NCBI GenBank assembly: GCA_963816185.1
Contig: CAWFJJ010000030.1
Span: 320,001-384,000 of the forward strand
DNA: 64,000 nucleotides
Origin: Thermoanaerobaculia bacterium
GTDB lineage: Bacteria > Acidobacteriota > Thermoanaerobaculia > UBA5066
Reading direction: 5' to 3'
The stretch's first letter is position 1, and every line of letters begins with the position of its first letter. Under the pieces are notes generated by a model that saw nothing but the letters and a program-made list of their open reading frames with translations, was not told the DNA's origin and searched no databases. Below are positions 13,059-47,040 of this stretch, one piece after another. The position numbers and the translations under genes were made by a program.

Positions 13059-13084
13059 GTCTCCCGCATTCTCTTACCTTTCTA
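12989..13084. repeat. Palindromic mini-element copy 1 (degenerate)
   Basis: TAGAAAGAGAAGAG (12993-13006) vs CTCTTACCTTTCTA (13071-13084), 12/14 complementary; left arm begins TTCTTAGAAAG. Confidence 0.4.
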
Positions 13085-13155
13085 CGCTCTTCTTGCTCCA
13101 TTCCGGATCCGCGCATCCGCCGAGGATCAGCGCCTTGCGGTTATCCTCAGGCGCA

Positions 13156-13782
13156 ATGCGCCTCGTCGCCGACAACCTCTCGCGCTCCTTCGGGCGCCGT
13201 GCCTTCGGGCCGGTCTCGTTCAGCGTCGAGACGGGTCGGGTCCTCGGCATCGCGGGAGAGAACGGGAGCGGAAAGACGACTTTGCTGAAGACCCTCGCAG
13301 GCTTGATTCGGCCAAGCGGAGGGCGCGCGAAGATCTTCTTAGATGATGAAAAGGCAGGGGATGGCCATGAGCCGCGCGATATTCCCTGGCGCATCGGGTG
13401 GGTGGCGCCGGATCTCGCCCTGTACGGAGAGCTGACGGCCGAGGAGAACCTGACCTTTTTCGAAAGGGTCCGCGGCCTCGTGTCGGATCCCGATCGGGTA
13501 CGCGCGCGGCTCGAGGGCGTCGGCCTACCGCTCGAATCCCATTCTCAGAAATCTCTCTCCTCTCTCTCCACGGGCCAACGCCAACGGGTCAAGCTCGCCT
13601 TTGCGACGCTGCACGAGCCCGACCTTCTCCTCCTCGACGAGCCGGGCGCGAATCTCGACGAGGCAGGGCGCTCCATCGTTCAGAAGGTCGTCGCGGGGCA
13701 GCGGATCCGGGGCATCACCGTGATCGCCTCGAACGACCCGCGCGATCTCGCGCTCTCGGATGAGAGAGTGACTCTCTCGTGA
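13156..13782 (+). CDS. ccmA: Heme exporter ATP-binding protein CcmA
   Basis: GENGSGKT Walker A, LSTGQRQR signature, LLLLDEP; overlaps ccmB; ATG at 13156. Confidence 0.85.
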   Translation: MRLVADNLSRSFGRRAFGPVSFSVETGRVLGIAGENGSGKTTLLKTLAGLIRPSGGRAKIFLDDEKAGDGHEPRDIPWRIGWVAPDLALYGELTAEENLTFFERVRGLVSDPDRVRARLEGVGLPLESHSQKSLSSLSTGQRQRVKLAFATLHEPDLLLLDEPGANLDEAGRSIVQKVVAGQRIRGITVIASNDPRDLALSDERVTLS

Positions 13783-14480
13783 GCGCGCCGCGCGCGGCTG
13801 CCGGAACCGTGCCGGCGGCCATCGCCGTGCTCCGGCGGGAGCTCCTCGCGGAGTGGCGGACGCGCGTGGCCGTGAACTCGCTCTTCCTCTTCGCCTTCGC
13901 CGTGCTCGTCCTCGTCGCCTACGCCGTGGGCCCGACGCGCCTCTCGCCGGAAGACAGGCCCACCGTGAACGCCGTCCTCCTCTGGATCGTCCTTTTCTTC
14001 TCGGCGATGACGGGTCTCTCGCGCACGTTCGTTCACGAGGAGGACGCCGGCACCGCCGCGGCCCTGCGGCTGTCGGCGCCTCCATCCGGAGTCCTCCTCG
14101 GAAAGCTGCTCGCGAACGTGGCGCTGCTCGGCGCGGTGACCGCCTTCATCGTGCCTCTCTTCGTCGTCCTCATGGGCTTCGAGATCAAGGATCCGCCGCT
14201 CTTCGTCGTCCTGCTCCTGCTCGGGACATTCGGACTCGCTTCGGCGTCCACGTTCACGGCGGCTCTCGTTTCGAAGGCGAGCGCCAAAGGCGCGCTCTTC
14301 GCCGTGCTGGCGATCCCGCTCCTCCTCCCGCCTCTCGTCGGCGCCGTCCTCGCGACGCGGGTCGCGGCGACGCAGGCGGAATTCTCGGCCGGGCTCGATT
14401 TCGCGCGGCTCCTCGTCGCTTACGACGGCGTCGTCACGACGGCCTCTTTCCTGCTCTTCGACGCCGTCTGGCGCGAGTGA
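13779..14480 (+). CDS. ccmB: Heme exporter permease CcmB
   Basis: Six TM helices, RTFVHEEDAGT...LLGKLLAN, VLAIPLLLP. Confidence 0.9.
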   Translation: MSAPRAAAGTVPAAIAVLRRELLAEWRTRVAVNSLFLFAFAVLVLVAYAVGPTRLSPEDRPTVNAVLLWIVLFFSAMTGLSRTFVHEEDAGTAAALRLSAPPSGVLLGKLLANVALLGAVTAFIVPLFVVLMGFEIKDPPLFVVLLLLGTFGLASASTFTAALVSKASAKGALFAVLAIPLLLPPLVGAVLATRVAATQAEFSAGLDFARLLVAYDGVVTTASFLLFDAVWRE

Positions 14481-14483
14481 TCC

Positions 14484-15737
14484 GTGGCTGAAGCCGGCGC
14501 CCTTCCCGGCCTCCTCGAAGTGGCCACGATGGTCCACCTCGTTCTCGGGATGCTGCGCGCCGTCCTCGGCTCCCGCGGCACCAAGGCGAAGATCGCTTCC
14601 TTTCCGTCGTTCCTCGCGGCGACGACACCGTGGATCTTCCCGGGGACCGTCGCGGTGCTCGCCGTCGTCCTCGCCGACCTTTTCTGGTACGCCGCAGCCG
14701 GCTTTCTCCTGCGCGGCCGTGAAACCGCCCCGCCGGCGCGGCGCCCGACGCCGACGACGACGCTGCGCGTTCTCGGCGTGCGGCGCGAGACCGACGAGAT
14801 CCGGACCTTCCGGCTCGAGCGCCCGCCGGGCTTCGACTTCCAACCCGGGCAGTACCTTACGGTCGTCGTGCCCGTCGAGGGCAAGCTCGTCTCGCGCTGC
14901 TACTCGATCTGCTCTGCGCCGGACGAGACCGGGCACCTCGAGATCTCCGTGCGGCGGCAGGGCCTCGTCTCGGCGGCGCTGCACGAGAGCGTCCGCTCGG
15001 GGGGCGCGATCGCGGCGCGTAAGCCGGCCGGAAAATTCGTCTACCCGGGAGACAGCCAGCGGCCGATCGTCCTGCTCGGCGGCGGAGTCGGGATCACGCC
15101 GCTCCTCGCGATGCTCCGGCACGCGGCCGCCGCCGATCCCGGCCGTGAGGTCACGCTCCTCCTCTCCGTCCGCACGGGCATGCAGATTCCCTTCAAGGCC
15201 GAGCTCGACGACCTAGGCCGGCGCCCCGGACTGCGTGTCGTCGTCACGGCCACGCGGGGCGGCGCCGTGCCTCCCGTCCGTTCGGGCCGGCTGGACCTCG
15301 ACTTCGTGAAGCGCGAGATCCGCGACCCGGCAGCCTGCGTCTTCTGTATGTGCGGCCCCGGGGAGATGATCGAAGGTTTCAAGAAAGGCCTCCCGACGCT
15401 CGGCGTGCCGCCCGGACAGGTGCGAGCCGAGGCGTTCGAGGCAGCCAAGCACGGGCCGGGAGCGCACACGGCGGCCGGGCCCTTCACGCTCGAGCTGACG
15501 GTGAGCGGAAAGACCGTGATTGTCGCCCCCGGGGCGACGCTTCTCGAGGCGGCCGAGGCGGCGGGGGCTGACATCCCCTCGTCCTGCCGCGCCGGCGTCT
15601 GCCAGACCTGCCGGACCAGAGTGGTCTCGGGCGACGTCGACTGCCCCGCCGACTGCACCGACGACGCGGACCGGCGCGACGGCTGGATCTACCCGTGCGT
15701 CGCCTGGCCGAAGTCGAACTGCACGCTCGAAGCCTGA
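14484..15737 (+). CDS. FNR-family FAD/NAD(P)-binding oxidoreductase with C-terminal 2Fe-2S ferredoxin and N-terminal hydrophobic anchor
   Basis: FQPGQY, RCYSICS, GGGVGITP, MCGP, CRAGVCQTC...C; ~75 hydrophobic residues at the N-terminus. Confidence 0.9.
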   Translation: MAEAGALPGLLEVATMVHLVLGMLRAVLGSRGTKAKIASFPSFLAATTPWIFPGTVAVLAVVLADLFWYAAAGFLLRGRETAPPARRPTPTTTLRVLGVRRETDEIRTFRLERPPGFDFQPGQYLTVVVPVEGKLVSRCYSICSAPDETGHLEISVRRQGLVSAALHESVRSGGAIAARKPAGKFVYPGDSQRPIVLLGGGVGITPLLAMLRHAAAADPGREVTLLLSVRTGMQIPFKAELDDLGRRPGLRVVVTATRGGAVPPVRSGRLDLDFVKREIRDPAACVFCMCGPGEMIEGFKKGLPTLGVPPGQVRAEAFEAAKHGPGAHTAAGPFTLELTVSGKTVIVAPGATLLEAAEAAGADIPSSCRAGVCQTCRTRVVSGDVDCPADCTDDADRRDGWIYPCVAWPKSNCTLEA

Positions 15738-15746
15738 TTCGTGATC

Positions 15747-15761
15747 TGAGACACAGTCTCA
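15747..15761. promoter_or_regulatory. Palindrome TGAGAC-N3-GTCTCA, candidate activator (enhancer) site
   Basis: Perfect 6-bp inverted repeat ~100 bp upstream of the candidate sigma54 element; overlaps a CRP/FNR-like CGTGA-N6-ACACA (15740-15755). Confidence 0.4.
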
Positions 15762-15857
15762 ACGTTAGGCTCGGACACTTTGAGATAAAGCCGAGCCGAG
15801 GCTCGGACTGTCCGGTACGTACGCTTCGGCGTCCCATTTGCCCATCGGCTGCATCTC

Positions 15858-15873
15858 GGGAACAGATCTTGCT
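15858..15873 (+). promoter_or_regulatory. Candidate sigma54 (-24/-12) promoter
   Basis: GGGAACAGATCTTGCT fits TGGCAC-N5-TTGCW with exact GG-N10-GC spacing; AAGGAG RBS follows at 15901. Confidence 0.5.
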
Positions 15874-15915
15874 TTTCGGGAGCAGATTCCGGATTTTTGA
15901 AAGGAGTACAGGGGA

Positions 15916-16902
15916 TTGGACTACGTGGCGAACCCGAAGAAGGGTACCCGTCGGATCTCCGCCTCGCCTCCAACATTCCTCGGTCCCTCCTCCGTCGTCC
16001 CGACGCTCACTGCCGCACGCGCCGCCTCCGCGAAGGTGAAGCGCGACGCCTGGCTTCCGATGGCCTCCCTCTCGCACGCCCTCGCCCTCGCATTCCTCGT
16101 GAGCCTCGGCCTCGTCGCCTTCGTGTTCGTGAAGCTGGGCGGATGGCAGTACTACTTCGCTCCGGAGGCGACACGCGGCTACATCCCGGCACACAAGCTC
16201 CTACACCCCGCCGGGCGCGCCGGCGAGATGTTCGGGATCGCGGGCCTCCTCATCATGTGCATGACCCTCGTCTACGCCGCGCGCAAGAAGTTCCGCGGCC
16301 TCTCGAAGATCGGCACGACGAAGACCTGGCTCGAGATCCACATCTTTTGCGGCCTCGTGGGTCCCGTGCTCGTGACGCTCCATACCGCGATGAAGTTCAA
16401 CGGCGTCGTCTCGATCGCGTACTGGTCGATGATCCTCGTCGTCCTGTCCGGCTTCATCGGGCGCTATCTCTACGTGCGGATCCCGAAGACGCTTCGCGGG
16501 ACCGAAATCTCTCTCGAGGAGCTCGACGCGCGCGCCATCGAGCTCAAGGGCCAGCTCGCGGCCGAAGGTCTTGCGACCGTCCTTCTACGCCGGATCGAGG
16601 AGCTCGAGCAAGGTTCACGCTCGGGGGGCTTCATCCTCGGGGACTTCAGGCTCGGACGAGGACTCGCTCAGCTCCACAAGGAGCTCGCTCAGGCCGGTAT
16701 TTCGCCTACGCGCCTCGTCGCCGCCGACCGGCTCATCCGCGAGCGGGTGACGCTTCTCAGGCGCATCGCGACGCTCGACACCTCCAAGAAGCTCTTCCAC
16801 CTCTGGCACGTCTTCCACAAGCCGTTCGTCTACGTGATGCTCGCGATCGCCGCGGTCCATGTCGCGGTCGCGCTGTACTTCGGCTACGCGGGCCACTGGT
16901 GA
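15916..16902 (+). CDS. Inner-membrane protein with conserved His pairs, ferric-reductase-like / putative b-type cytochrome
   Basis: TM helices with WLEIHIFCGLVGPVLVTLH and WHVFHKPF...AAVH; stop overlaps the cytochrome start (GTGA). Confidence 0.75.
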   Translation: MDYVANPKKGTRRISASPPTFLGPSSVVPTLTAARAASAKVKRDAWLPMASLSHALALAFLVSLGLVAFVFVKLGGWQYYFAPEATRGYIPAHKLLHPAGRAGEMFGIAGLLIMCMTLVYAARKKFRGLSKIGTTKTWLEIHIFCGLVGPVLVTLHTAMKFNGVVSIAYWSMILVVLSGFIGRYLYVRIPKTLRGTEISLEELDARAIELKGQLAAEGLATVLLRRIEELEQGSRSGGFILGDFRLGRGLAQLHKELAQAGISPTRLVAADRLIRERVTLLRRIATLDTSKKLFHLWHVFHKPFVYVMLAIAAVHVAVALYFGYAGHW

Positions 16903-19900
16903 GGGCACGCCTCCTCGGGCTCGCGTCGGTCCTCGCTTCGCTCGTGCTGGCGGCACACGCGGACGCGCAGGGCCTCGGGACCCTCGTCTCCCCTGGCAAG
17001 CTCTCGAAGGCGCACGCGAACCTCGAAGGCCTCGACAAGTGCCAGACCTGCCACGAGCCGGGCCGCCAGGTCACCGCCGCCAGGTGTCTCGCCTGCCACA
17101 AGCCCGTCGCCGAGCGCATCAAGGCGAAGAAGGGAGTCCACCGGAACGCCACGGGCGACGACTGCGCGAGCTGCCACGTCGAGCATGCAGGTCTCGACGG
17201 AGACCTCCGTCACTTCACGCCGAAGGGCTTCGACCACACGGGCGAGGCCGGGTTCGCTCTCGACGGCCTCCACGCGCCGCTCGAGTGCAATACCTGCCAC
17301 AAGACACGCTCGTACCTCGGCCTCTCCGCGTCGTGCGCCTCCTGCCACAAAGACGTCCACAACGGGACTCTCGGCGCAACGTGCCAGACGTGCCACGCGA
17401 CGAGCGTCGCCTTCAAGGACACGCGAAAGGGGTTCGACCACTCCCGGACGAAGTACCCGCTGACCGGCGCCCACACGAAGACTCCCTGCGAGAGCTGCCA
17501 CAACGTCAAGGGCGAGTACCGAATCGCGCGCTTCGCCGTCTGCGAGGGCTGCCACAAGAACCCCCACCAGCCGGCGCTCGGGACGTGCACGACGTGTCAC
17601 GTCACGACGAGCTTCAAGGAGCCCGCTGAGGGCCGGAGGTTCGACCACGCGAAGACGGGCTATCCGCTCCGCGGCCGCCACGCGAGCGTCGCCTGCCAGA
17701 CGTGCCACGTGAAGCCGGCGACGGTCGTGCGCCTCAGGTACGCGCGCTGCGCCGACTGCCACCAGGACGTCCACAAGGGCCTCTTCCCCCGCGAGGATTG
17801 CGCGTCCTGCCACACGGAGAGCGGGTTTGCGCCCGCGAAATTCGATCATGGGACGCGCACGAAGTTCCCCCTCGACGGCAAGCACGCGGCCACGCCTTGC
17901 CTTGCCTGCCATAAGCAGGCGGGAGCACAGGTGCGTGCTCCCCGCGCGCAGCGGGTCGTCGACTTCCGCGGCGCGAAGGCGGCGTGCGCCTCCTGCCACA
18001 AAGACGCCCACAAGGGGAAGCTCGGCTCGAGCTGCCAGACCTGTCACGGAACGACCTCCTTCAAGGTTTCGGAGTTCCGGCACCCGCGCCAGCCCGAGTT
18101 CTTCGAGGGCGCGCATGCGGGCGTCGCGTGCGAGAAGTGCCATCTCCCGGAGCCGGCGTCCCGAACCGACCTCGCGAAGGGCGCCGCGGCACCCGCGGCC
18201 GCGCGGCAGTACAGAGGCGTGTCGTTCCAGTGCGCGAGCTGCCACAAGGACCCGCATCTCGGGCAGGTGGGTCCGGACTGCGCGGCGTGCCACAGCCTCG
18301 CGACGAAGGGCTACAAGCCCGACCTCTTCGTCCACACGCGCGCGAAGTTCGCGCTCACGGGCAAACATGAGACGGTCCCTTGCGCGAAGTGCCACGCGAA
18401 GGAGACCGGGACGTTCCCCGCGGGCAAAGGCACGGCGGTCCGCCTCACGGGCCTCTCGACGGAGTGCCGAACCTGCCACAAGGACCCGCACCTCGGGCAG
18501 CTTTCGCCGCGCTGCGAGACGTGCCACGACGCCGCATCGTTCCGGATCGCGAAGTTCACGCATCCCGCGAAGAAGGAGACCGAGGGCTTCTTCGTCGGCA
18601 AGCATGCGGCGATCGCATGCGCCGAGTGCCACCCGAAGGAGACGATGGATTACCCCGCGGGCCGCGGAACCGCCGTTCAATATTCGGTCCCGGTCGATTG
18701 CGCGCACTGCCACGAGGACGCGCACAAGGGCGCCTTGGGGCGCGACTGCGCGTCCTGCCACAACGCGAACCAGTGGCGGACCGCCTCGCGCGCCTTTCAC
18801 AAAACAGCCGCCTTCTCGCTCGAGGGCAAGCACATCTCGGTCCCGTGCGCGTCCTGCCACCTGAAAGGCGTCCTCAAGGGCACGCCCACGGGCTGCTACG
18901 ACTGCCATTGGATCCGCAAGCCCGACGACCGCTTCAAGACGAAGCTCGGGAGCGACTGCCAGACGTGCCACCGGCCGATCGGCTGGACCGCCGTCACGTG
19001 GAGCCACACGTCCGCGACGGGATTCACGCTCGAGACGCCCCACAAGACGCTCGACTGCGAGTCCTGCCACAAGAGTCAGGTCTTCCCGGGGACGCCCCGG
19101 GACTGCTACTCCTGCCATCGGGCGGACTACGAGCGCGTCCAGAACCCGAACCACGTCGCAGGCGGCTTCCCGACGGATTGCACCGGTTGCCACAAACCGA
19201 CTGCCCCGACGTGGCGGGGCGCGACGTTCACCCACGCGACCTTCCCGCTCGCCGGCGTCCACGCGACGCAGGCCTGCGCCTCGTGCCACGTGAACAACAT
19301 CTACAAGGGAACGCCGCGCGACTGTTTCTCCTGCCATCGGACGGACTACCAGAATTCGAAAAACCCGCCCCACGCTGCCGCCGCGTTCCCGACCACGTGC
19401 GACTCGTGCCACAAATTCTCCGATCCGAACTGGCAGGGCGCGGGTTTCAACCACAACTCGGCGACGACGTTCCCGCTGGTCGGGCCGCACGTCACGGCGC
19501 CGTGCGCAAGCTGCCACGTCAACGGCAACTACACGACCGTCCCGACGACCTGCTACGGCTGCCACCAGAAGGACTCGGCGGGCGCCACGACTCCGGTGAA
19601 CCATTCCGGCCTGCCGACGACGTGCGAGAGCTGCCACAAGAACACGGACACGACCTGGCTGCTGGCGACGGCCTTCAACCACTCGACGTACTTCGCGCTG
19701 GCCGGCGCCCACGTCACCGCAGCTTGCGCCCAGTGCCACACGAACGGCAACTTCACGACCCTGCAGTCGACCCCGACGCCTTGCGCGACCTGCCACCAGA
19801 ACGACTACAACACGGCGAAGACGCCCGTGGACCACGTCGCGTCAGGCTTCTCGACCACCTGCGACTCGTGCCACAAGTTCTCCGACACGACGTGGATGCA

Positions 19901-21931
19901 GGCGACGTTCAGCCATACGACCTTCCCGCTGGTCGGCGTGCACGCGACGACGCCCTGCGCGACGTGCCACAACCCCCCGTATGCCCCTTCAGCCAACAAC
20001 TACACGACCGTCCCGACGACCTGCTACGGCTGCCACCTGAAGGACTCGGCGGGCGCCACGACTCCGGTGAACCATTCCGGCCTGCCGACGACGTGCGATT
20101 CCTGCCACAAGAACACGGACGCGACCTGGTCGCTGGCCACGGCCTTCAACCACTCGACGTACTTCGCGCTGGCCGGCGCCCACGTCACCGCAGCTTGCGC
20201 CCAGTGCCACACGAACGGCAACTTCACGACCCTGCAGTCGACCCCGACGCCTTGCGCGACCTGCCACCAGAACGACTACAACACCGCGAAGACGCCCGTG
20301 GACCACGTCGCGTCAGGCTTCCCGACCAACTGCGACTCGTGCCACAAGTTCTCCGACACGACGTGGATGCAGGCGACGTTCAGCCATACGACCTTCCCGC
20401 TGGTCGGCGTGCACGCGACGACCGCCTGCGCGAGCTGCCACGTCAACAACAACTACACGACCGTCGCGACGACCTGCTACGGCTGCCACCAGAAGGACTC
20501 GGCGGGCGCCACGACTCCGGTGAACCATTCCGGCCTGCCGACGACGTGCGATTCCTGCCACAAGAACACGGACGCGACCTGGTCGCTGGCCACGGCATTC
20601 AACCACTCGACGTACTTCGCGCTGGCCGGCGCCCACGTCACGGCGCAATGCGCCCAGTGCCACACGAGCGGCAACTTCGTCAGCGTGCCCAAGAGCCCGT
20701 GCTCGGCGTGCCACCAGAACGACTACAACAACGCGAAAACGCCGGTGAACCACATCGCGTCGAGCTTCCCGACCACCTGCGACTCGTGCCACAAGTTCTC
20801 CGACGCGACGTGGATGCAGGCGACGTTCAGCCATACGACCTTCCCTCTCGTCGGCGTACACGCGACGACCGCCTGCGCGAGCTGCCACGTCAACAACAAC
20901 TACACGACCGTCGCGACAACCTGTTACGGCTGCCACCAGAAGGACTCGGCGGGCGCTACGACTCCGGTGAACCATTCCGGCCTGCCGACGACGTGCGACA
21001 GCTGCCACAAGAACACGGACGCCACCTGGCTCTTGGCCACGGCCTTCAACCACTCGACGTACTTCGCGCTGGCCGGAGCCCACGTCACGGCGGCCTGCAC
21101 CCAGTGCCACACGAGCGGGAACTACGTCAGCGTGCCCAAGAGCCCGTGCTCGGCGTGTCATCAGACGGACTACAACAACGCCAAGACGCCCGTGAACCAC
21201 GTCGCGTCGAGCTTCCCGACCACCTGCGACTCGTGCCACAAGTTCTCCGACGCGACGTGGATGCAGGCGACGTTCAGCCATACGACCTTCCCGCTGGTCG
21301 GCGTGCACGCGACGACGCCCTGCGCGAGCTGCCACGTCGCCAACAACTACTCCACCGTCCCGACGACCTGTTACGGCTGCCACCAGAAGGACTCGGCGGG
21401 CGCCACGACTCCGGTGAACCATTCCGGCTTGCCGACGACGTGCGACAGCTGCCACAAGAACTCGGACACCACCTGGCTGCTGGCGACGGCCTTCAACCAC
21501 TCGGCATACTTCGCGCTCGCTGGCGCCCATGTCACGGCGGCCTGCACCCAGTGCCACAACCCCCGAAGCGCGAAAACTACGTCAGCGTGCCCACGAGCCC
21601 GTGCTCGGCGTGCCACCTCCCCGCCTACCAGACCGCGACGACTCCCGTGAACCACATCGCGGCGGCCTTCCCCACGACCTGCGACACGTGCCACAAGTTC
21701 TCCGACACGACGTGGCTGCAGGGCGTCTTCAACCACACGTACTTCCCGCTGGTCAGCAATCACAACGTGCCGTGCAACCAGTGCCACACCACCGCCGGCA
21801 CCTACGCGGTCTTCAACTGCATCAGCTGCCACACGGCCGCCAAGACAAACGGGGATCACTCGGGCGTCAAGGGCTATGTGTGGGCGTCGACGGCCTGCTA
21901 CTCCTGCCACCCGAACGGACGAGGCGGCTGA
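16899..21931 (+). CDS. Giant exported multiheme c-type cytochrome, 66 CxxCH motifs (~1,680 aa), 1-nt frameshift at C-run 21560-21564
   Basis: Signal peptide ending AHADA|Q; 61 CxxCH counted in frame 15897..21650 from GTG 16899, plus 5 in frame 18380..21931; one extra C restores NPPKRENYVSV. Confidence 0.93.
19460..21740 (+). repeat. Five near-identical tandem hexaheme repeat units inside the cytochrome gene
   Basis: Anchor GACTCGGCGGGCGC at 19572, 20043, 20496, 20943, 21390; periods 471, 453, 447, 447 bp, all in frame; boundaries approximate. Confidence 0.92.
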
Positions 21932-23217
21932 TGCGCCGCCGCCTCGCGATTCTCGCGGCCCTCCTAGTCCTGAGGGCCCCGGCCGCGGCGCAGTCCGCCC
22001 TCGACCTCGGCCGCATCGCCGTGTTCGGCCAGGTCCTGCGGTCGAAGAACGACGACGGGACGACGACGGCCTACAACGAGCTGACCGCTTCGGTCACGCT
22101 CCACACGCCGCCGCGCGACACAGACGGGGTCGAGTTCTCGATCGACGCGCGCGGCTCTGAGTACCCGTCCGTCGCAAACCGCGATCCGCACCTGACCGTC
22201 TATGACGCCTGGGTCGGCGGGCATCTCGCGGGCGGCCACCTGGCCGTGCGGCTCGGTCAGATGTACCTGAACGACCTCGGTGCCCTTGGAGGCGTGGGCG
22301 GTGCCGCGCTCGAAGGCCGAACCGGTAAGGTCCGGTTCGGCCTCTTTGGCGGCCTCGAGCCGAAGGGTTTCGACGCGGGCTACGTCGCGGATGTCAGGAA
22401 GGGCGGTGCGTACGTCGCTTATGACGGGGAGCGCGGCTGGCACGACGCCCTCGGTTTCGTCACGATCCGCGACCAGGGACTCGTTGAGCGGAATGTCCTC
22501 TCGACGACGAACTTCATCCCGGTCGGCAAAGAGTTCTTTCTCTACCAGGCCGCCGAGTACGATCTGACCGGGCCGGGAGGCGTCGGGAGCGGCGGCCTCG
22601 CCTACGTCTTCGCGACGGCCCGCTGGGCCCCTGCCAGGACGTTCGAGATCCAGGGCCAGTACCAGCACGGGCGCTCGATCGACGCGCGCTCGATCACGCA
22701 GGACCAGCTCGCGGGCCGCCCGGTGGACGCGAAGAGCCTTCAAGGTTTTCTCTTCGACTCGATGGGCGGGCGCGCGACCGTGGAGTTTGCCCGCGGCTGG
22801 CGGGTCTGGGGCGGCTACTACCAGGACAAGAACAATCGCGACGACATCGCGTCGAACCGCTGGCAGTTCGGCCTGTCCGCGATGAACGTCCTCGGGTCGG
22901 GGTTCGATGCATTCGCCTCGGACAACCGGACGATCCGCCCGGGAAGCTCCAGCTACGACGCGTGGTACTTCTCTCTCGGGCGCAGCCTCGGCTCCCGTCT
23001 CTACCTGACCGTGGACTACTCGACCTCGCTGTCCGTGCTGCAGCTGACCGATTCGGGGGGCCTCACGGTCGTGAACCGGCCCTCCTCGAGACGCTACAGC
23101 CTCTCGGGAACGTTCAACGTCACTCGCGCGTTCTCCGTCTTCGTGACGGCCGAGCAGCTCGTCGACGACACGTCGAAGGAGAACCGGGGCCTCTTGGGCC
23201 TATCGTTCCGTTTTTGA
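21931..23217 (+). CDS. Outer-membrane beta-barrel protein (putative porin partner of the multiheme cytochrome)
   Basis: Signal peptide MRRRLAILAALLVLRAPAAA|Q, amphipathic aromatic-rich beta strands, C-terminal LGLSFRF; TGATG coupling to the cytochrome. Confidence 0.85.
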   Translation: MRRRLAILAALLVLRAPAAAQSALDLGRIAVFGQVLRSKNDDGTTTAYNELTASVTLHTPPRDTDGVEFSIDARGSEYPSVANRDPHLTVYDAWVGGHLAGGHLAVRLGQMYLNDLGALGGVGGAALEGRTGKVRFGLFGGLEPKGFDAGYVADVRKGGAYVAYDGERGWHDALGFVTIRDQGLVERNVLSTTNFIPVGKEFFLYQAAEYDLTGPGGVGSGGLAYVFATARWAPARTFEIQGQYQHGRSIDARSITQDQLAGRPVDAKSLQGFLFDSMGGRATVEFARGWRVWGGYYQDKNNRDDIASNRWQFGLSAMNVLGSGFDAFASDNRTIRPGSSSYDAWYFSLGRSLGSRLYLTVDYSTSLSVLQLTDSGGLTVVNRPSSRRYSLSGTFNVTRAFSVFVTAEQLVDDTSKENRGLLGLSFRF

Positions 23218-23280
23218 TACGGAGTCTCTGAAGCAAGCAGACTAATGGGGAGCGGGCATCCGGGCGTTATGATCCTCGCC

Positions 23281-23946
23281 GTGAAGACCCTCGGTTTCGC
23301 CGGCAAGTGGTTCCTGGGACTCGGGATGGCTGTGATTTGCTGGGCCGCCTTCCTCTGGGCCCGTCCCGCCCAGAACTTCGTCGGCGAGTCCTCGAGGATC
23401 GTCTTCTTCCACGTGCCGATGGCGTGGGTATCCACGCTCGCTTTCTTCCTCGCCGCCTGGCATTCGGCCGTCTATCTGAAGAACCGCCGGATCGAGAACG
23501 ACGACGCCGCGGCCGGCGCGGCGCGGCTCGGTTTCGTGTTCTGCGTTCTGGCCACGGTCACCGGCTCGATCTTCGCCCGCGTGATGTGGAACTCGTACTG
23601 GAACTGGGACCCCCGCGAGACGTCCATCGTGCTCCTGCTCCTCGTGTACGGCGCGTATCTCGGCCTGAGAGGCGCGCTCGAGGACCCCGAACGTCGCGCG
23701 ACGCTCTCGGCGGCGTACGCGCTCGTGGCGGTCGTGACCGTTCCTTTCCTGACTTTCGCCGTCCCCCGCATGTACCAGTCGCTGCATCCCGACACCGTCC
23801 TCAACGCGCGAGGAAAGGTCGAAATGTCCGCGGACATCCAAACCGTTTTCTTCTCCTCCATGGTGGCTTTCATGATCTTGTTCTTCTGGATGTGGAATCT
23901 CGACCGGCGGGTGTCCCGTATCGTCCGCGAGAGGGCGACGGCGTGA
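23281..23946 (+). CDS. ccmC: Heme exporter / cytochrome c biogenesis protein CcmC
   Basis: FFHVP, WNSYWNWDPRE (WWD motif), SLHP; start taken as GTG 23281, 7 nt after TATGAT (ATG 23245 is the alternative). Confidence 0.92.
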   Translation: MKTLGFAGKWFLGLGMAVICWAAFLWARPAQNFVGESSRIVFFHVPMAWVSTLAFFLAAWHSAVYLKNRRIENDDAAAGAARLGFVFCVLATVTGSIFARVMWNSYWNWDPRETSIVLLLLVYGAYLGLRGALEDPERRATLSAAYALVAVVTVPFLTFAVPRMYQSLHPDTVLNARGKVEMSADIQTVFFSSMVAFMILFFWMWNLDRRVSRIVRERATA

Positions 23947-24071
23947 GCGGGGCTCTCGGGTACGTCGCGGCGGTCAACATCGTGATCTGGGCCGGAATCT
24001 TCGGCTACCTCGTCTATCTCGACCGGAAGGTCCGGGCCGCCTCGGGGCCCGGGCAGGAGAAACCCCGATGA
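23943..24071 (+). CDS. ccmD: CcmD-like small membrane protein
   Basis: 42 aa, YVAAVNIVIWAGIFGYLVYLDRKVR, overlapping ccmC and ccmE. Confidence 0.75.
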   Translation: MSGALGYVAAVNIVIWAGIFGYLVYLDRKVRAASGPGQEKPR

Positions 24072-24466
24072 AACGTGCTTACTGGGCCGGCGCCCTCCTC
24101 GTCGTCGGCTTTCTCGCCCTCGGTCTGTCCACGTTCACGCGCTCGATGACGCCTTACGTCTCCTTCGCCGAGGCGAAGGCCGCGCCGCGCACGGTCCAGG
24201 TGATGGGCGCCCTCGAAAAGGGCACGTCGCGTTACGACACAGCCTCGAAAACGCTCTATTTCACGCTCCTCGACCCGAAATCGCACGAGTCGATTCCCGT
24301 CTCCTACACGGACGTGAAGCCCGCGAATTTCGAGGACGCCGTGTCCATCGTGGCGATCGGCCGGTACGAGGGCGGCGTCTTCGCCGCAGAGAAGCTTCTC
24401 GTCAAGTGCCCGTCCAAGTACCAGGGCGAGGAAATCGAAAAACAGTACGGCGCCAAAAAGGCCTGA
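24068..24466 (+). CDS. ccmE: Heme chaperone CcmE, CxxxY variant
   Basis: N-terminal TM, YTDVKPANF, LLVKCPSKY. Confidence 0.92.
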   Translation: MKRAYWAGALLVVGFLALGLSTFTRSMTPYVSFAEAKAAPRTVQVMGALEKGTSRYDTASKTLYFTLLDPKSHESIPVSYTDVKPANFEDAVSIVAIGRYEGGVFAAEKLLVKCPSKYQGEEIEKQYGAKKA

Positions 24467-24475
24467 GGACACCCC

Positions 24476-26929
24476 ATGAACAATCTCCCCGGAATTCTCG
24501 GCTTCGCGCCGGGCACGCTCGCGATTTGGGCGGCCATGCTCTTCGGCGTCACGTGCATGCTCGCCTACCTGCGTTCGATGCGCAGCACGGGATTCGCAGC
24601 CGGGGATTTTCTTAGAAAGGGTAAGAGGGGCTCCCGTGCGGTCGCAGCAACGGCCGATCCGGGCGACCTATTACCATTCGAAGAAAATTCTCTTTCTCCT
24701 AATCTCTTCTTCGCCCGGCGCCTGTATTACGCCTACGTCTTCTCGGTCCTTCTCGCGTCGTTCCTCCTTCTGACGCGGCTCCTCTCGCACGACTTCCGCA
24801 TCTCATACGTGGCGTCGTACTCGGGGCGCGACCTGCCGTTCTATTACCTCTTCTCGACGTTCTGGGCAGGGCAGGAGGGCTCGTTCCTGCTCTGGCTCTT
24901 CTGGGGCGCGCTCATCGGGCTGTTCGTTCTGAGGTCCGCGAAGGAGCAGGAAGCTCCCGTGATGGTGATCTACGTCGCGTCGTTCCTCGGAATCGTCGCG
25001 ATCCTCGTCAAGCAGTCGCCGTTCCGGTTCCTCGCGCAGATCCCGCCGGACGGCCAGGGCCTGAACCCGCTCCTGCAGGACCCGTGGATGGTCATCCACC
25101 CGCCGGTCATGTTCTCTGGGTTCGCGTCCCTCTCGGTGCCGTTCGCGTTCGCGATCGGCGCGCTCTGGATGAAGCGCTGGGACGGCTGGGTCGTCCGCGC
25201 CATGCCGTGGGCGCTCTTCACGTTCGTCACGCTCGGCACCGCGATCCTGATGGGCGGGTATTGGGCCTACAAGACGCTCGGCTGGGGCGGCTACTGGGGC
25301 TGGGATCCGGTCGAGAACACGTCCCTCGTGCCATGGCTCGCGACGGTCGCGCTCGTGCACGGAATGTTCCTCCAGAAGATGCGCGCCAAGCACCGCAAGA
25401 TCAACATCATTCTCGCGATCCTCGCTTTCTGCTGCATCCTGTACGGCACGTTCCTGACTCGCTCCGGAGTTCTCGCGGACTTCTCCGTTCACTCCTTCAT
25501 CGATCTCGGGATCACCGGGTGGCTCGTCGGGATCATCGTCGTCTTCCTCGTCGGCGGCCTCGCCCTCCTCGCATGGCGCTGGAAGGAGATCCCGGTCGTC
25601 TCCGACCTGGACGCGACGACCGGCAAAGAGAAGGAAGAGCCGTTCCTGTCACGGTCGGTCCTCTTCATCCTCTCCGTGACGCTCTTCTGCGCCTCGGGCC
25701 TCGTCATCCTCCTCGGGACCTCGGCTCCGATCCTGACGCGTGTCCTGGGCAAGCCCTCGCAGGTCGCGACGAGCTTCTACAACGTCACGCACCGGCCGAT
25801 CGCGGGTCTCATGGCCCTGCTTCTCCTTCTCGTGCCGTACCTGTCATGGCGCGGCGAGAACGGAAAGGGCGTCCTGAGAAAGGCCCTCGTCCCGGGCGCC
25901 GTGGGACTCCTCAGCGTCGGAGTCTTCTTCTCGGCGGGCGTGCGCGGGGCGGGCGACCTCCTGATCCTCGCTCTCGCGGTGGCCGGGTTCGTCGCGAACG
26001 CCGAGACCGCGGTCCTCTTCGTGAGGCGCAGGGCCGTCAAGACCATGGGCGGATATCTCGCGCACATCGGCATGTCGATCATGCTCGTGGGCATCCTCAT
26101 CTCGGGCGTCTACGAGAAGAAGACGACGGTGAACCTCTTCAAGAACCAGCCGGTCACCGTCGGGAGCAACACCTTCACGTTCACGCGCACCGTCTTCGTC
26201 ACGGACAGCGGCGAGGTGAAGCGTTTCGAGGAGCTCAACGCGGCCGACCCCTCCGACCGCCGCGCCAAACAGGCGATGGAGGTCGAGGTTTCGTCGCCCG
26301 GGCGCAGCGTCTGGAAGGCCTATCCGAAGCTCTACACGAACACGCGCACGAACCAGATGATGGCGAACCCCGACGTGAAGTCGTCGCCGCTCATGGACCT
26401 CTACGTCTCCCCGCAGGCTTACGACCCGGGGCGATCCGCGCACATCGAGGGCACGACGCTCGCCCTGAGGAAGGGCGAGTCGAAGACCGTCGACGGCGTC
26501 AAGGTGAAGTTCCTCGACTTTTCCGCCGACCGCTCGCAGGTGTCGTCGGACCGGCCGCGAGTCACCGTGACGGGCAATTTCCTCGTGACGACCGCCGAAG
26601 CCTCCGAGGAGAAGACCGCCCGGCTCGTCATGTACTTCGGCGGAGCGTCGGCGGAGTCCGCGACGGAGTCACCGGAGACGCCTCTTCCCGGAAAAGGCCG
26701 CTTGAAGATTCTCAAGGTGTCGCCGAACGAAGGCACATGCGAGATCGAGCTCCTCGGTGTCGCTCCGGGCGGAGACCTCAAGCCGGCGACGGCCGAGACC
26801 TTGTCCGTCGACCTCACGACGAAGCCGCTGATCTCCCTCGTGTGGGGAGGCTTCTACGTGATGATGGCGGGCGGCCTCCTGGCGCTCGTGCGCCGCGCCC
26901 GCGATTCGCGCCAGGCGGCGATCGCCTAG
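24476..26929 (+). CDS. ccmF: Cytochrome c heme lyase CcmF
   Basis: WAGQEGS, GLNPLLQ, IHPP, WGGYWGWDPVEN, SVHSF, KPLISLVW. Confidence 0.95.
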   Translation: MNNLPGILGFAPGTLAIWAAMLFGVTCMLAYLRSMRSTGFAAGDFLRKGKRGSRAVAATADPGDLLPFEENSLSPNLFFARRLYYAYVFSVLLASFLLLTRLLSHDFRISYVASYSGRDLPFYYLFSTFWAGQEGSFLLWLFWGALIGLFVLRSAKEQEAPVMVIYVASFLGIVAILVKQSPFRFLAQIPPDGQGLNPLLQDPWMVIHPPVMFSGFASLSVPFAFAIGALWMKRWDGWVVRAMPWALFTFVTLGTAILMGGYWAYKTLGWGGYWGWDPVENTSLVPWLATVALVHGMFLQKMRAKHRKINIILAILAFCCILYGTFLTRSGVLADFSVHSFIDLGITGWLVGIIVVFLVGGLALLAWRWKEIPVVSDLDATTGKEKEEPFLSRSVLFILSVTLFCASGLVILLGTSAPILTRVLGKPSQVATSFYNVTHRPIAGLMALLLLLVPYLSWRGENGKGVLRKALVPGAVGLLSVGVFFSAGVRGAGDLLILALAVAGFVANAETAVLFVRRRAVKTMGGYLAHIGMSIMLVGILISGVYEKKTTVNLFKNQPVTVGSNTFTFTRTVFVTDSGEVKRFEELNAADPSDRRAKQAMEVEVSSPGRSVWKAYPKLYTNTRTNQMMANPDVKSSPLMDLYVSPQAYDPGRSAHIEGTTLALRKGESKTVDGVKVKFLDFSADRSQVSSDRPRVTVTGNFLVTTAEASEEKTARLVMYFGGASAESATESPETPLPGKGRLKILKVSPNEGTCEIELLGVAPGGDLKPATAETLSVDLTTKPLISLVWGGFYVMMAGGLLALVRRARDSRQAAIA
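24605..24689. repeat. Palindromic mini-element copy 2, in frame inside ccmF
   Basis: ATTTTCTTAGAAAGGGTAA (24606-24624) vs TTACCATTCGAAGAAAAT (24671-24688); AT-rich arms in a GC-rich gene. Confidence 0.55.
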
Positions 26930-26952
26930 ACTCTCCCTCTCGAGGAGAACCC

Positions 26953-29001
26953 ATGAAATCAGTCTCGTCCGCTCTCGCTGTCTTCGCGTTGGCTGCCCTC
27001 GCCGTCCCGCTCGCCGCCCTCGCCCAGCCCGCCGCGCCCGCGAAGCCGAAGGCGCTCGATCCCGCGAACTTCGACACGTCCGTCAAGCCGTGCGAGGACT
27101 TCTACGAGTATGCGAACGGCGCGTGGCTGAAGACTCATCCCATCCCCGCCGACCGCGCGCGCTACGGATCCTTCGACGAGGTCTCGGACCGCAACCGCGA
27201 GGTCCTCAGGAAGATCCTCGAGGAGACCTCGGCGAAGAACGACTGGCCGAAGGGATCGAACGAGCAGAAAGTCGGCGACTTCTACGCCGCCGGGATGGAC
27301 GAGGCCGCGATCGAGAAGGCGGGGACGAAGCCTCTCGCGCCGTTTTTCGCCGCGATCGACAAGCTGAAGGCTCCGGGCGACCTTCCCGCGGTGCTCGCGG
27401 AGCTCCATACCCGGGGCCTCGAGGCCGGATTCAACTTCCGCGTCGCCCAGGACGCCCGGAAGAGCACGCGGTACATCGGCATCCTGAACCAGGGTGGCCT
27501 CGGCCTTCCCGACCGCGACTACTACACGAAGGACGATGCGAAGTCGAAAGGCCTCCGCGAAGCCTACCGGAAGCACGTCGCGAAGATGTTCGAGCTCTCC
27601 GGAGACTCTCCCGAGAAGGCGAAAGAGTCCGCGGACGTCGTGATGGCGCTCGAGACGAAGCTCGCGGAGCCCGCGCTCACGCGCGTCGAGAACCGCGATC
27701 CGCAGAGGACCTACAACAAGAGGACGCTCGCCACGCTCGTCTCCGAGGCGCCGGGCTTCGACTTCCCGCGCTTTTTCACCGACCTCGGCGCGTCCTCCGC
27801 CACCGAGGTGAACGTCAGGCAGCCGCGCTTCTTCGTCGCGTTCGGCGAGCTTGCGCGCACGGTTCCCGCCCAGACGTGGCGGACGTACCTGAGATGGCAC
27901 GTTCTCCGGCAATCCGCGCCTTATCTTGCGAAAGCCTTCGAGGAGGAAGCCTTCGCGTTCAGCGGGAAGACCCTGATGGGCGTTCCGGAGCAGGAGCCGC
28001 GCTGGAGGCGAGTCCAGGCCGCGACGGACCAGGCTCTGGGCGAGGCCCTGGGGCCTCTCTACGTGGCACGCGCCTTCACCCCGCGCGCGAAAGAACGGAT
28101 GCGCGTCCTCGTCGAGAACCTGCGCGCCGCGCTCATGGAGCGGATCGATGCCCTGCCGTGGATGAGCGCCGAGACGAAGAAGCAGGCCCAGCGAAAGCTC
28201 GCCGCCTTCAACGTGAAGATCGGGTATCCCGACAAATGGCGAGACTACTCGTCCCTCCCGATTTCACGCGCGTCGTATCTCGAGAACGTGTGGAACGCCC
28301 GCACCTTCGAGACGAGGCGCAACCTCGCGAAGCTCGGCAAGCCCATCGACCGGACGGAGTGGGGCATGACGCCCCCGACGGTGAACGCCTACTACAACTC
28401 CACGATGAACGAGATCGTCTTCCCAGCGGGGATTCTCCAGCCTCCTTTCTTCTCCGAGGACGCCGACGACGCCGTGAACTACGGCGGGATCGGCGTCGTC
28501 ATCGGCCACGAGATGTCCCACGGCTTCGACGACTCCGGCAGCCAGTACGACGCGGACGGGAACCTCAAGAACTGGTGGACGCCCGCCGACCGGAAGGCTT
28601 ACGACGCCCGCACGGCTCTCGTCGTGAAGCAGTTCGACTCCTACAAGCCGCTCCCCGACCAGGCCATCAACGGCAAGCTCACGCTCGGAGAGAACATCGG
28701 CGACCTTGGCGGCATCAAGATCGCCTACGCGGCGCTCCAGAAGGCGCTCGCAGGGAAGCCGCACACCGCGATCGACGGTTTCACGCCGGAGCAGCGCTTC
28801 TTCCTCTCGTTCGCGACGATCTGGCGAAACCACTCGCGAGACGAGGCCCTTCGTGTCCAGCTCAACACGAACCCGCACAGTCCCGGCAAGTGGCGCGCCA
28901 TAGGCCCCACCTCGAACCTGCCGGAGTTCTACGACGCGTTCGGCTGTGCGGAGGGGGCTCCCATGCGCCGCGCGGAGGCCGAACGGCCGAGCATCTGGTG
29001 A
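26953..29001 (+). CDS. pepO: M13 family metallopeptidase (PepO / neprilysin-like), exported
   Basis: Signal peptide, PCEDFYEYANG, VNAYY, HEMSHGFD, GENIGD, NPHSP; GGAG RBS. Confidence 0.93.
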   Translation: MKSVSSALAVFALAALAVPLAALAQPAAPAKPKALDPANFDTSVKPCEDFYEYANGAWLKTHPIPADRARYGSFDEVSDRNREVLRKILEETSAKNDWPKGSNEQKVGDFYAAGMDEAAIEKAGTKPLAPFFAAIDKLKAPGDLPAVLAELHTRGLEAGFNFRVAQDARKSTRYIGILNQGGLGLPDRDYYTKDDAKSKGLREAYRKHVAKMFELSGDSPEKAKESADVVMALETKLAEPALTRVENRDPQRTYNKRTLATLVSEAPGFDFPRFFTDLGASSATEVNVRQPRFFVAFGELARTVPAQTWRTYLRWHVLRQSAPYLAKAFEEEAFAFSGKTLMGVPEQEPRWRRVQAATDQALGEALGPLYVARAFTPRAKERMRVLVENLRAALMERIDALPWMSAETKKQAQRKLAAFNVKIGYPDKWRDYSSLPISRASYLENVWNARTFETRRNLAKLGKPIDRTEWGMTPPTVNAYYNSTMNEIVFPAGILQPPFFSEDADDAVNYGGIGVVIGHEMSHGFDDSGSQYDADGNLKNWWTPADRKAYDARTALVVKQFDSYKPLPDQAINGKLTLGENIGDLGGIKIAYAALQKALAGKPHTAIDGFTPEQRFFLSFATIWRNHSRDEALRVQLNTNPHSPGKWRAIGPTSNLPEFYDAFGCAEGAPMRRAEAERPSIW

Positions 29002-29047
29002 CGCCGGTCGGCACGCCGGCGCTCATGAGTCCACGCGGCGGTCCGTG

Positions 29048-29500: not shown

Positions 29501-29529
29501 TGCCTCCCGCGGTTCGGCCCCTTCCAGAG

Positions 29530-35064: not shown

Positions 35065-35132
35065 TCTTGCTTCCCTCTCGAAGAGACAGGATCTCACAAA
35101 CCTGCTGCGCCTCGGCGCACCGTCGGGGCGCT

Positions 35133-46983: not shown

Positions 46984-47040
46984 CGATAGATCCTGCCCGG
47001 GGATCTTAGTGCGGCCCGAAAACGCGACGGGCCGGCCCCG

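Follow-up and report, generated by a model that had tools for sequence, protein, structure and literature searches.

A giant multiheme cytochrome and a 22-strand outer-membrane barrel encoded within a ccm operon of Thermoanaerobaculia: a candidate envelope-spanning electron-export system

In electron conduits of the MtrCAB, PioAB and MtoAB type, the gene for an exported multiheme cytochrome lies directly beside the gene for a large outer-membrane barrel, and the heme chain is proposed to be insulated by the barrel. The same gene arrangement, for which the same logic is proposed, was found in a 64,000-nucleotide stretch of DNA (the window) from a Thermoanaerobaculia bacterium (GenBank assembly GCA_963816185.1, contig CAWFJJ010000030.1, positions 320,001 to 384,000 of the forward strand; C30:320001-384000 in the contig numbering used here). 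The source assembly comprises 5.09 Mb in 30 contigs, with a completeness of 94.9% and a contamination of 3.4%, and the metagenome-assembled genomes (MAGs) that carry homologues of the window proteins are named Thermoanaerobaculia and Acidobacteriota. Four co-oriented genes, encoding a flavin/2Fe-2S reductase, a membrane protein, a giant multiheme cytochrome c and a β-barrel, lie between ccmAB and ccmCDEF. Profile matches and the sequence itself agree with this placement, which had been given in a preliminary description of the window. We propose that the four products form an envelope-spanning electron-export system, in which electrons would run from NAD(P)H through FAD and a 2Fe-2S cluster, heme b and a heme wire to the barrel, and we give this reading about an even chance of being correct.

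Compared with MtrCAB, PioAB and MtoAB, the barrel is distinguished by 22 strands in its AF2 model, as opposed to 26 in MtrB, and by the lack of a match to the MtrB_PioB profile. One giant cytochrome, with 21 to at least 134 hemes across the family, replaces the decaheme cytochrome and the separate surface decaheme cytochrome of MtrCAB, and the input would be made up of a flavoprotein and a b-type membrane protein instead of the quinol-oxidising CymA. With the Pcc (OmaB/OmbB/OmcB) and Ext clusters of Geobacter, the operon shares the layout of a non-Mtr porin-cytochrome cluster with exchangeable parts. In Pcc, however, a periplasmic octaheme cytochrome and a lipoprotein cytochrome flank the porin, whereas both the operon and the window contain a single multiheme cytochrome gene and none for a lipoprotein cytochrome. 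As in the GSU1996-type polymers, c7-type triheme modules are concatenated, but here with at least five times more hemes, in a gene coupled to barrel and inner-membrane input genes, and in another phylum. Long single-chain wires are described for Desulfuromonadia, with a predicted 27-heme wire as one example (PMC11492766).

On the input side, the operon resembles NOX, MsrQ-Fre and MsrQ-like systems, in which electrons from a cytoplasmic NAD(P)H-flavin domain enter a membrane protein that carries two His-ligated b hemes and reduces an acceptor outside the cytoplasm; in the present case, the two hemes are putative. MsrQ-like proteins with NAD-binding domains have been presented as transmembrane electron-transfer devices (PMC8238504). 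The membrane protein described here differs from these by its five helices, a coiled-coil insert of about 100 residues and scores below the Ferric_reduct cut-off; the reductase is separate and has an added 2Fe-2S domain, and the acceptor would be a multiheme cytochrome c, not oxygen, MsrP or a flavinylated protein. For peat Acidobacteriota and Verrucomicrobiota, syntenic clusters of porin and multiheme cytochrome genes (EET1-EET4) have been proposed to support extracellular electron transfer (bioRxiv 10.64898/2026.05.27.727921). According to the same source, their cytochromes carry 8-13 hemes and resemble OmcE, MtrC, MtrA or OwcA, and the clusters occur in Terriglobia such as Bryobacterales; its abstract and section 9 mention neither a giant cytochrome nor a reductase/b-type input, and the clusters are distinct from the present set. 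A literature search, with bioRxiv supplements and subscription journals outside its scope, returned no description of the operon, the barrel family or the membrane family. By its profile matches and gene content, the operon is assigned to the porin-cytochrome-like conduits, outside the MtrB/PioB, MtrA/DmsE and Pcc classes.

All genes of the locus are located on the + strand, in the order ccmA, ccmB, reductase, membrane protein, giant cytochrome, barrel, ccmC, ccmD-like open reading frame (ORF), ccmE and ccmF, with the following features (window coordinates):

13024-13782, + strand: ccmA (PF00005, 97.7 bits; likelier start at ATG 13156)
13779-14480, + strand: ccmB (PF03379, 78.9 bits)
14484-15737, + strand: reductase, 417 amino acids (PF00970, 45.8 bits; PF00175, 49 bits; PF00111, 58.4 bits)
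15916-16902, + strand: membrane protein with five helices (328 amino acids from TTG 15916; 280 amino acids from ATG 16060)
16899-21650, + strand: giant multiheme cytochrome c, frame-0 part (61 CXXCH; PF14522, PF02085, PF14537, PF22113)
19464-21754, + strand: tandem array within the cytochrome gene (447-nucleotide unit, 5.0 copies; Tandem Repeats Finder)
21562-21574, + strand: frameshift site (10 nucleotides fewer than in relatives, in the linker after the 61st CXXCH)
21575-21931, + strand: C-terminal 5-heme domain of the cytochrome, 118 amino acids, in the other frame (PF14522, 29.7 bits)
21931-23217, + strand: outer-membrane β-barrel, 428 amino acids, 22 strands in the AF2 model (no Pfam or NCBIfam model)
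23245-23946, + strand: ccmC (PF01578)
about 23946-24071, + strand: small ccmD-like ORF (ccmD-like as read from its translation only)
24068-24466, + strand: ccmE (PF03100)
24476-26929, + strand: ccmF (PF01578 and PF16327)

The profiles of CcmA, CcmB, CcmC, CcmE and CcmF were all matched in the window, as expected for a System I Ccm machinery. The GTG start of the reductase gene follows the ccmB stop codon at a distance of 3 nucleotides, the barrel gene is separated from ccmC by 27 nucleotides, and the sole sizeable gap in the set (178 nucleotides) is located 5' of the membrane-protein gene. The TGA of the latter overlaps with the GTG start of the cytochrome gene (GTGA, 16899-16902), and the TGA of the cytochrome gene overlaps with the ATG of the barrel gene (TGATG, 21929-21933). 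Both overlaps had been interpreted as translational coupling and are present, but coupling at TGATG requires that the frameshift in the cytochrome gene be read through. A promoter scan of the region 12800-27200 yielded 0 sigma-70-like sites; terminator-like sites in the same region numbered 13, as compared with 8.5 +/- 2.5 in shuffled sequences. A weak terminator-like hairpin (15875-15898) with 7 base pairs, including 3 G-C pairs, and a subsequent TTTTT is found within the 178-nucleotide gap, just 5' of the ribosome-binding site of the membrane-protein gene.

Conservation of the set was analysed in two independent samples of loci (numbered with the prefix L). The barrel-seeded sample comprised 73 loci from species-representative genomes; the membrane-protein-seeded sample comprised the best 80 of 569 confirmed metagenome matches. 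Judged by record title, nearly all barrel-seeded loci belong to Thermoanaerobaculia/Thermoanaerobaculales, Vicinamibacterales, Holophagae, Aminicenantes or unclassified Acidobacteriota, and four are titled otherwise (two as 'uncultured bacterium', one as Methanoregulaceae and one as Eubacteriales). The C-terminal 5-heme domain is encoded on the same strand, no more than 1.5 kb upstream of the barrel gene, in 69 of the 73 loci. As to the four exceptions, L032 and L040 are without upstream DNA, L060 has another gene order, and L062 has no such domain in its 10 kb upstream. Where the N-terminus and enough upstream DNA were present, the membrane-protein gene adjoins the cytochrome gene in 22 of 44 barrel-seeded loci, and reductase and membrane-protein genes are both adjacent in 17 of 42. 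Two loci (L002 and L025) instead encode a true Ni_hydr_CYTB protein (45-46 bits, cut-off 30.1) directly upstream of the cytochrome, in place of reductase and membrane protein; L018 encodes a flavoprotein fused to the membrane domain (see below), and others have no recognisable input gene. In the membrane-protein-seeded sample, the reductase gene immediately precedes that of the membrane protein in 40/40 loci whose upstream DNA extends to 1.4 kb or more. A heme-rich ORF directly follows the membrane-protein gene in 58/59 loci with 600 or more nucleotides of downstream DNA, and a barrel gene is located downstream in 11/16 loci with at least 7 kb. The linkage counts in both samples thus define two tight modules, reductase-membrane protein-cytochrome and cytochrome-barrel, and the window carries both. 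The idea of one conserved set therefore holds for cytochrome and barrel (69/73) and for reductase, membrane protein and cytochrome (40/40 and 58/59), but not for the membrane protein in barrel-seeded loci (22/44).

Several loci showed other gene contents. L086 (10475-16214) carries the module without this barrel and encodes a 23-heme cytochrome, NHL-repeat propellers, a 4-heme cytochrome, a SurA-like peptidyl-prolyl isomerase and a 730-amino-acid protein without a Pfam match; L088 and L089 resemble it by heme-ORF pattern alone. NHL-repeat and SurA-like genes also occur near Geobacter-type clusters. In L008 (224-2038), an ORF that joins FAD-binding-like and FdnI/cytochrome-b-like parts, as judged by eye, lies between the membrane-protein and cytochrome genes and is followed by the gene for a 333-amino-acid coiled-coil protein. 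A 320-amino-acid protein encoded upstream of the cytochrome in L034, L046, L051 and L054 was considered as a divergent membrane protein and rejected (hhalign probability 0.2, with L054 tested).

The cytochrome has 66 CXXCH motifs, of which frame 0 contributes 61 and the C-terminal piece 5. All of its 132 cysteines are located within these motifs (122 = 2x61 and 10 = 2x5), a pattern far from chance, and its 134 histidines are sufficient for bis-His ligation of each heme. It starts with a Sec signal peptide (AHA/DA) and has no lipobox. The export signal and the motif count agree with the 66-heme exported cytochrome of the preliminary description, whereas the single open frame assumed there requires read-through of a frameshift at 21562-21574 that had been overlooked. 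PF14522 (Cytochrome_C7) was matched with 238.1 bits over 17 stretches and PF02085 with 144 bits, both above the gathering score, which together with the bis-His capacity assigns the protein to the cytochrome c7/class III multiheme group. On the MtrA/DmsE model TIGR03508, it scored 74.6 bits with a cut-off of 192.2, and a PDB sequence search gave one marginal match.

The cytochrome, or heme wire, has conserved ends and a middle of tandem repeats whose length varies among lineages. The repeat unit in the window comprises 447 nucleotides, or 149 amino acids, with about 6 CXXCH (5.0 copies, 89% matches, score 3202), and heme spacings recur as 16/24/34/17/26/32. Over the loci, the N-terminal 334 amino acids are 40-83% identical and the C-terminal 123 amino acids 41-84%. 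The C-terminal domain of 118 amino acids ends in ACYSCHPNGR and has 26 invariant columns in 46 aligned sequences, including the 5 CXXCH motifs and H27, H54 and H95. Heme counts across the family range from 21 (L049, L056) to at least 134 (L020), and intact relatives with a single ORF have 66 (L011), 72 (L005) and 63 (L018) motifs. The ORF of L020 (1-9906; 3302 amino acids, 134 CXXCH) is open at the left end of the locus, lies directly 5' of its barrel gene and is among the most heme-rich single ORFs that we have seen described. Contigs of 200 nucleotides from two soil DNA runs (X1 and X2) rejoin position 21546 to 21100, a 447-nucleotide step equal to one repeat unit. These joins hint at a difference in repeat number among strains or at a contig-graph artefact caused by the repeat.

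Frame 0 of the cytochrome gene extends from 16899 to a premature stop codon at 21648-21650, and the C-terminal domain continues in the other frame at about 21560-21931. The distance from the His codon of motif 61 to a conserved AAC-TAC is 17 nucleotides in the window, as compared with 27 nucleotides in L003, L005, L007, L011 and L018; the sixth aligned relative, L004, has a still shorter linker, which is in frame. Contigs of three soil runs from one study (X1-X3), which are about 97% alike, bridge the site with 1+1+7+1 = 10 more letters. The frameshift may be an assembly error or a real strain-specific lesion. If the 10-nucleotide loss is real, the system would be a pseudogene remnant in this genome, with loss of the C-terminal domain and uncoupled translation of the barrel. 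The absence of the 10 nucleotides relative to five of the six aligned relatives and to the contigs of all three runs is in favour of such a lesion, as is the size of the gap, which is atypical of a one-base homopolymer error. The bridging contigs, however, represent a neighbouring strain and not this genome, the remaining parts of the system are intact and under evident constraint, and long-read MAG relatives contain many frameshifts in this GC-rich, repetitive gene. Other genes of the window appear to be affected as well. A gamma-glutamyltranspeptidase gene (28862-31420, - strand) is split over two frames, with Pfam positions 74-315 in the ORF 30001-31059 and positions 327-417 in the frame of 28862-31420, which suggests other frameshifts in the assembly. 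Likewise, an Mrp/ParA-type iron-sulfur carrier ORF (34570-35097, - strand) ends after matching only positions 2-56 of the ParA profile, which probably reflects a further frameshift or truncation of the gene. On balance, we regard a pseudogene remnant as somewhat unlikely.

The barrel protein has a signal peptide (AAA/QS) and a C-terminus reading ...SFRF. Its AF2 model (mean predicted local distance difference test score, pLDDT, 85.8) has 22 strands over residues 27-427 and no plug; the barrel begins right after the signal peptide, and no Plug or TonB_dep_Rec Pfam match was detected in the protein or its homologues. A VIA-align comparison with 48,161 PDB representatives placed TonB-dependent-receptor barrels at the top, with Cir (2hdf; Z 17.8, root-mean-square deviation 4.8, 346 residues aligned) followed by FyuA (4epa; Z 17.3) and FptA (1xkw; Z 17.3) and with 327-350 residues aligned across the three. 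The PapC and FimD ushers and Occ porins came next (Z 15.6-16.5), and MtrB was absent from the 50 rows listed. Foldseek returned ushers, AlgE and Occ porins at TM 0.35-0.49. The 22-strand fold is shared with TonB-dependent receptors, a likeness that is structural only and not one of family membership: the protein differs from them in having no plug, no TonB box region, short loops (428 amino acids in total) and 8-10% sequence identity. Its 345 homologues are all unnamed or 'hypothetical'. The MtrB_PioB profile had no match at E <= 10 in 31 barrel homologues, NCBIfam had no family for the barrel at E <= 0.01, and a PDB sequence search with the barrel profile gave noise only. The barrel is a new 22-strand family distinct from MtrB/PioB, in keeping with the earlier proposal of a non-Mtr architecture. 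Excessive narrowness, which had been named as a possible objection to a heme chain within the barrel, does not apply to a plugless, TonB-dependent-receptor-like barrel of this strand number.

Since a plugless 22-strand barrel needs a filler, and since the C-terminal 5-heme domain of the cytochrome is the sole candidate that is constantly co-encoded and coupled, this domain may dock in or at the barrel. Its 118 residues are about the size of the plug of a TonB-dependent receptor (about 150 residues). A complex prediction for the barrel, the C-terminal domain and 4 hemes, run without controls, gave scores of 0.00 and 0.01, which speak neither for nor against docking. The most conserved segments of the barrel are the loops at residues 107-124 and 248-266, which by strand order in the model would be external loops 3 and 7. 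These loops constrict the pore in specific porins such as those of the Occ family, and Occ porins are among the structural matches of the barrel. They could belong to a dedicated wide porin that admits soluble acceptors or shuttles (chelated Fe(III), quinone-like humics, flavins) to a wholly periplasmic cytochrome acting as an electron store or terminal reductase. The ordinary Sec signal peptide without a lipobox and a heme number of 66 to at least 134, beyond any bridging need, are in line with this arrangement. On the other hand, a plugless 22-strand barrel would be a very large open pore, and the known barrels of that size are all filled by a plug or a partner; moreover, the 69/73 adjacency, the stop/start overlap and the conserved C-terminal domain suggest that the cytochrome and the barrel are stoichiometric partners and that the latter is not a general porin. 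We consider a purely periplasmic cytochrome unlikely.

The domains of the reductase (FAD_binding_6, NAD_binding_1 and a C-terminal plant-type 2Fe-2S Fer2 domain) all scored above the Pfam cut-offs, and its translation contains the motifs RCYS, GGVGITP and CxxxxCxxC...C. These three domains place it in the PaaE/phthalate dioxygenase reductase class, but no named enzyme fits, its best NCBIfam matches (PaaE, NADH oxidoreductase) being below the cut-offs (160.5 versus 420.8 for PaaE). One or two N-terminal hydrophobic segments are followed by a positively charged stretch, and in 14 of 22 homologous loci, the alignment of the hydrophobic part begins at query residue 11 or before.

The membrane-protein gene most likely starts at TTG 15916, with AAGGAG located 9 nucleotides upstream and residues encoded 5' of ATG 16060 conserved in homologues. 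No Pfam or NCBIfam match was obtained for its product at default thresholds. Its 327 homologues are all annotated as 'hypothetical protein', save one fragment named cytochrome b561 by its source, and a profile search of 1.84 billion representatives returned 4096 clusters at E <= 1e-3, 730 of them at E <= 1e-30. The protein had been described as His-rich, which is true only mildly (about 11 His, counted by eye, in the printed 280 residues), but five His are invariant in 34/34 aligned homologues and one more is kept in at least 90%. One helix bears the invariant residues H94 and H108 and the last helix bears H250, H253 and H267, which yields two pairs, each 14 residues apart. A 14-residue spacing is typical of bis-heme ligation in NOX, cytochrome b and b561 proteins, and two His pairs at 13-14 residues are characteristic of two-heme membrane cytochromes b. 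In the AF2 model (pLDDT 78), which is helical, the coiled-coil insert (about 100 residues) separates helices 4 and 5, and the pairs are carried by helices at 87-113 and 216-273. According to the positive-inside rule, the insert and H94/H253 would be cytoplasmic and H108/H267 periplasmic.

Sub-threshold matches to DUF4405, Ferric_reduct and Ni_hydr_CYTB were obtained for 28, 27 and 23 of the 34 members, respectively, with best single-member E-values to two-heme families of about 1e-3. The window protein itself remained below the gathering scores (Ferric_reduct 14.4/28, Ni_hydr_CYTB 12.2/30.1, DUF4405 15.9/26.7). DUF4405 was unmentioned in the papers listed by one of the literature searches. Because of the His pattern and the sub-threshold matches, the membrane protein is probably a di-heme cytochrome b and is treated here as a candidate member of this group. 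A Foldseek search of the PDB with its model returned nothing at E <= 0.001 (cytochrome b561 and Dcytb appeared at E ~2), a wide VIA-align search gave generic helical bundles (best Z 8.6), and a PDB sequence search with the membrane-protein profile gave noise only.

The electron feed from the cytoplasm assumed in the preliminary description is supported by a natural fusion. In L018 (2508-4805), a 765-amino-acid Fer4 + Pyr_redox flavoprotein has a C-terminal part homologous to the membrane protein (hhalign probability 99.6, E 1.9e-23) and is encoded directly upstream of a 63-heme cytochrome and a barrel. The representative library further contained fusions of Fer2 with the membrane domain (P0253, P0386) and of the membrane domain with cytochrome c7 (P0370); longer fused forms of the membrane protein were not found in a set of 5.8 billion proteins, which is weak evidence.

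The membrane protein could also be fed by menaquinol, as are CymA, ImcH and CbcL, in which case the reductase would have another purpose and the architecture would otherwise be the same. Such a source of electrons would be consistent with the weak Ni_hydr_CYTB matches in 23/34 members and with the true Ni_hydr_CYTB proteins that take the place of reductase and membrane protein in L002 and L025. In addition, MsrQ is reported to have a ubiquinone cofactor (PMC12525009). Evidence against a menaquinol feed comes from the adjacency of the reductase in all 40 evaluable membrane-protein-seeded loci, from the fusion of a different flavoprotein to the membrane domain in L018, and from the membrane anchor retained by the reductase, and we deem such a feed distinctly unlikely. 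Inward electron flow, with Fe(II), reduced humics or a partner cell as the source, has precedents in PioAB/MtoAB-type porin-cytochrome systems, and c7-type hemes show no sign of direction. The reduction of NAD(P)+ from such donors would, however, be uphill, and the set encodes no energy-coupling component; furthermore, reductases of the FNR/2Fe-2S architecture normally oxidise NAD(P)H (as is general for the PaaE/phthalate dioxygenase reductase class, to which the NCBIfam matches are sub-threshold). An inward direction is very improbable.

The distribution of the system in Acidobacteriota is widespread but patchy: the barrel profile was matched in 14/401 genomes drawn evenly from the phylum, the window genome included, and in 13/227 genera. 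None of three other genomes of the same genus had a match. In these three, ccmA-ccmB-ccmC-ccmE-ccmF form one run, with no more than 75 nucleotides between the ccmB and ccmC matches. In the barrel-seeded sample, ccmC directly follows the barrel gene in 12/73 loci, all with a barrel identity of at least 77%. In L005 and L011, cytochrome and barrel genes alone are found between ccmB and ccmC; in L002 and L025, the Ni_hydr_CYTB gene precedes that of the cytochrome, with extra DNA separating it from ccmB in L025. At this site, the closest ccm-nested relatives encode neither the reductase nor this membrane protein. Given the uninterrupted ccm genes in the three congeners and the differing inserts in relatives, the nesting is a local insertion, and the ccmB-ccmC interval is a variable insertion site in this clade. 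The earlier suggestion of a system travelling with its own maturation machinery is contradicted by these data. A plausible benefit of the insertion in this genus would be co-expression with the heme-attachment machinery.

The position of the genes inside the ccm operon of the window might also mean that reductase and membrane protein are maturation helpers, which would keep heme iron or apocytochrome thiols reduced during the attachment of 66 hemes, outside any respiratory route. Yet the 17 barrel-seeded loci with both genes have no ccm gene within the locus, and the closest ccm-nested relatives lack both; a role in maturation is thus highly improbable.

In the proposed export system, the flavoprotein would be tethered to the membrane on its cytoplasmic side and pass electrons from NAD(P)H via FAD to its 2Fe-2S cluster. 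Single electrons would then be transferred to the membrane protein, whose two b-type hemes, held between the two His pairs with one heme near each membrane face, would relay them across the inner membrane in the manner of NOX/MsrQ-type ferric-reductase-domain proteins. In the periplasm, the conserved N-terminal part of the giant c7-type wire (66 hemes here) would take up the electrons, and the C-terminal 5-heme domain would dock in or at the plugless 22-strand barrel and deliver the electrons to acceptors at the surface, for example humic matter or Fe(III)/Mn(IV) minerals. That the cytochrome passes through the barrel to the exterior, as suggested in the preliminary description, is an inference. 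With electrons leaving the cell and the protons of NAD(P)H remaining inside, the system would act as a redox-balancing sink and not as a proton-pumping respiratory chain.

GSU1996 spans 12 nm with 12 hemes, which corresponds to about 1 nm per heme in c7 polymers. On the assumption of this value, the smallest family members (21-23 hemes) would roughly match the span between the inner membrane and the cell surface. Several points weigh against the export system as outlined. Wires of 66 to at least 134 hemes far exceed the width of the periplasm and fit a simple bridge poorly. The membrane protein adjoins the cytochrome in only 22/44 barrel-seeded loci, and the remaining ones have other inputs or none that is recognisable; the input module can therefore be exchanged and may be fed by quinol. 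For neither the membrane protein nor the barrel is there a relative with a solved structure or a name. In the fused proteins of the representative library, the parts follow the order of the genes, and these fusions may be artefacts of read-through. If the frameshift is real, the product is without the domain proposed to meet the barrel. Finally, no RNA runs were listed for the stretch, only contigs of soil DNA runs with a word share of 0.35-0.48. The extra length of the wire must be either folded back in the periplasm as storage or located outside the cell. In an extended version of the proposal, a single-polypeptide nanowire would be held in the plugless barrel by its C-terminal 5-heme domain, its repeat body, tuned by the gain and loss of repeats (21 to >134 hemes, tens of nm or more), would reach beyond the cell, and cytoplasmic NAD(P)H would power it directly via a split NOX-like module, without recourse to the quinone pool. 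We offer this version tentatively and judge it to be improbable, at the same level as the wholly periplasmic cytochrome.

In the genome as a whole, 24 stop-to-stop ORFs with at least 4 CXXCH were detected, indicating a cytochrome-rich organism. Five of these motif-bearing ORFs, with 10, 4, 6, 11 and 5 CXXCH, lie within 9 kb outside the window (contig C1:529092-538144) and may represent a second electron-transfer gene cluster of the same genome. Within the window, a 902-amino-acid protein (10350-13058, - strand) is encoded divergently from ccmA. It is without a Pfam family and has a weak match to the pilus-related PA5441 model of NCBIfam (E 1.5e-5, below the cut-off). Further genes encode a TPR-CHAT protein of 1139 amino acids (43732-47151, - strand), a TPR-Ser/Thr kinase of 936 amino acids (5243-8053, - strand) and a second kinase (57084-58574).

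Acidobacteriota are among the most abundant soil bacteria, and their means of electron disposal under anoxic conditions are poorly known. The operon provides a concrete, conserved candidate for electron disposal without oxygen in this phylum. Two of its four proteins belong to families that have no Pfam/NCBIfam model or solved relative and are new to annotation. To the known conduits, it would add a sheath in the outer membrane that is new in both family and size, a one-piece heme wire that evolves in length through tandem repeats, and an input that possibly draws on NAD(P)H rather than quinol. The family versions with 21-23 hemes offer a practical entry for expression and structure work. If the proposal is true, electron export would serve redox balancing in a fermentation-like metabolism and would bear on the cycling of iron, manganese and humics as well as on the suppression of methane in soils and sediments. 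Should the nanowire version also be true, the operon would constitute a one-operon cytoplasm-to-mineral circuit in a very abundant soil phylum.

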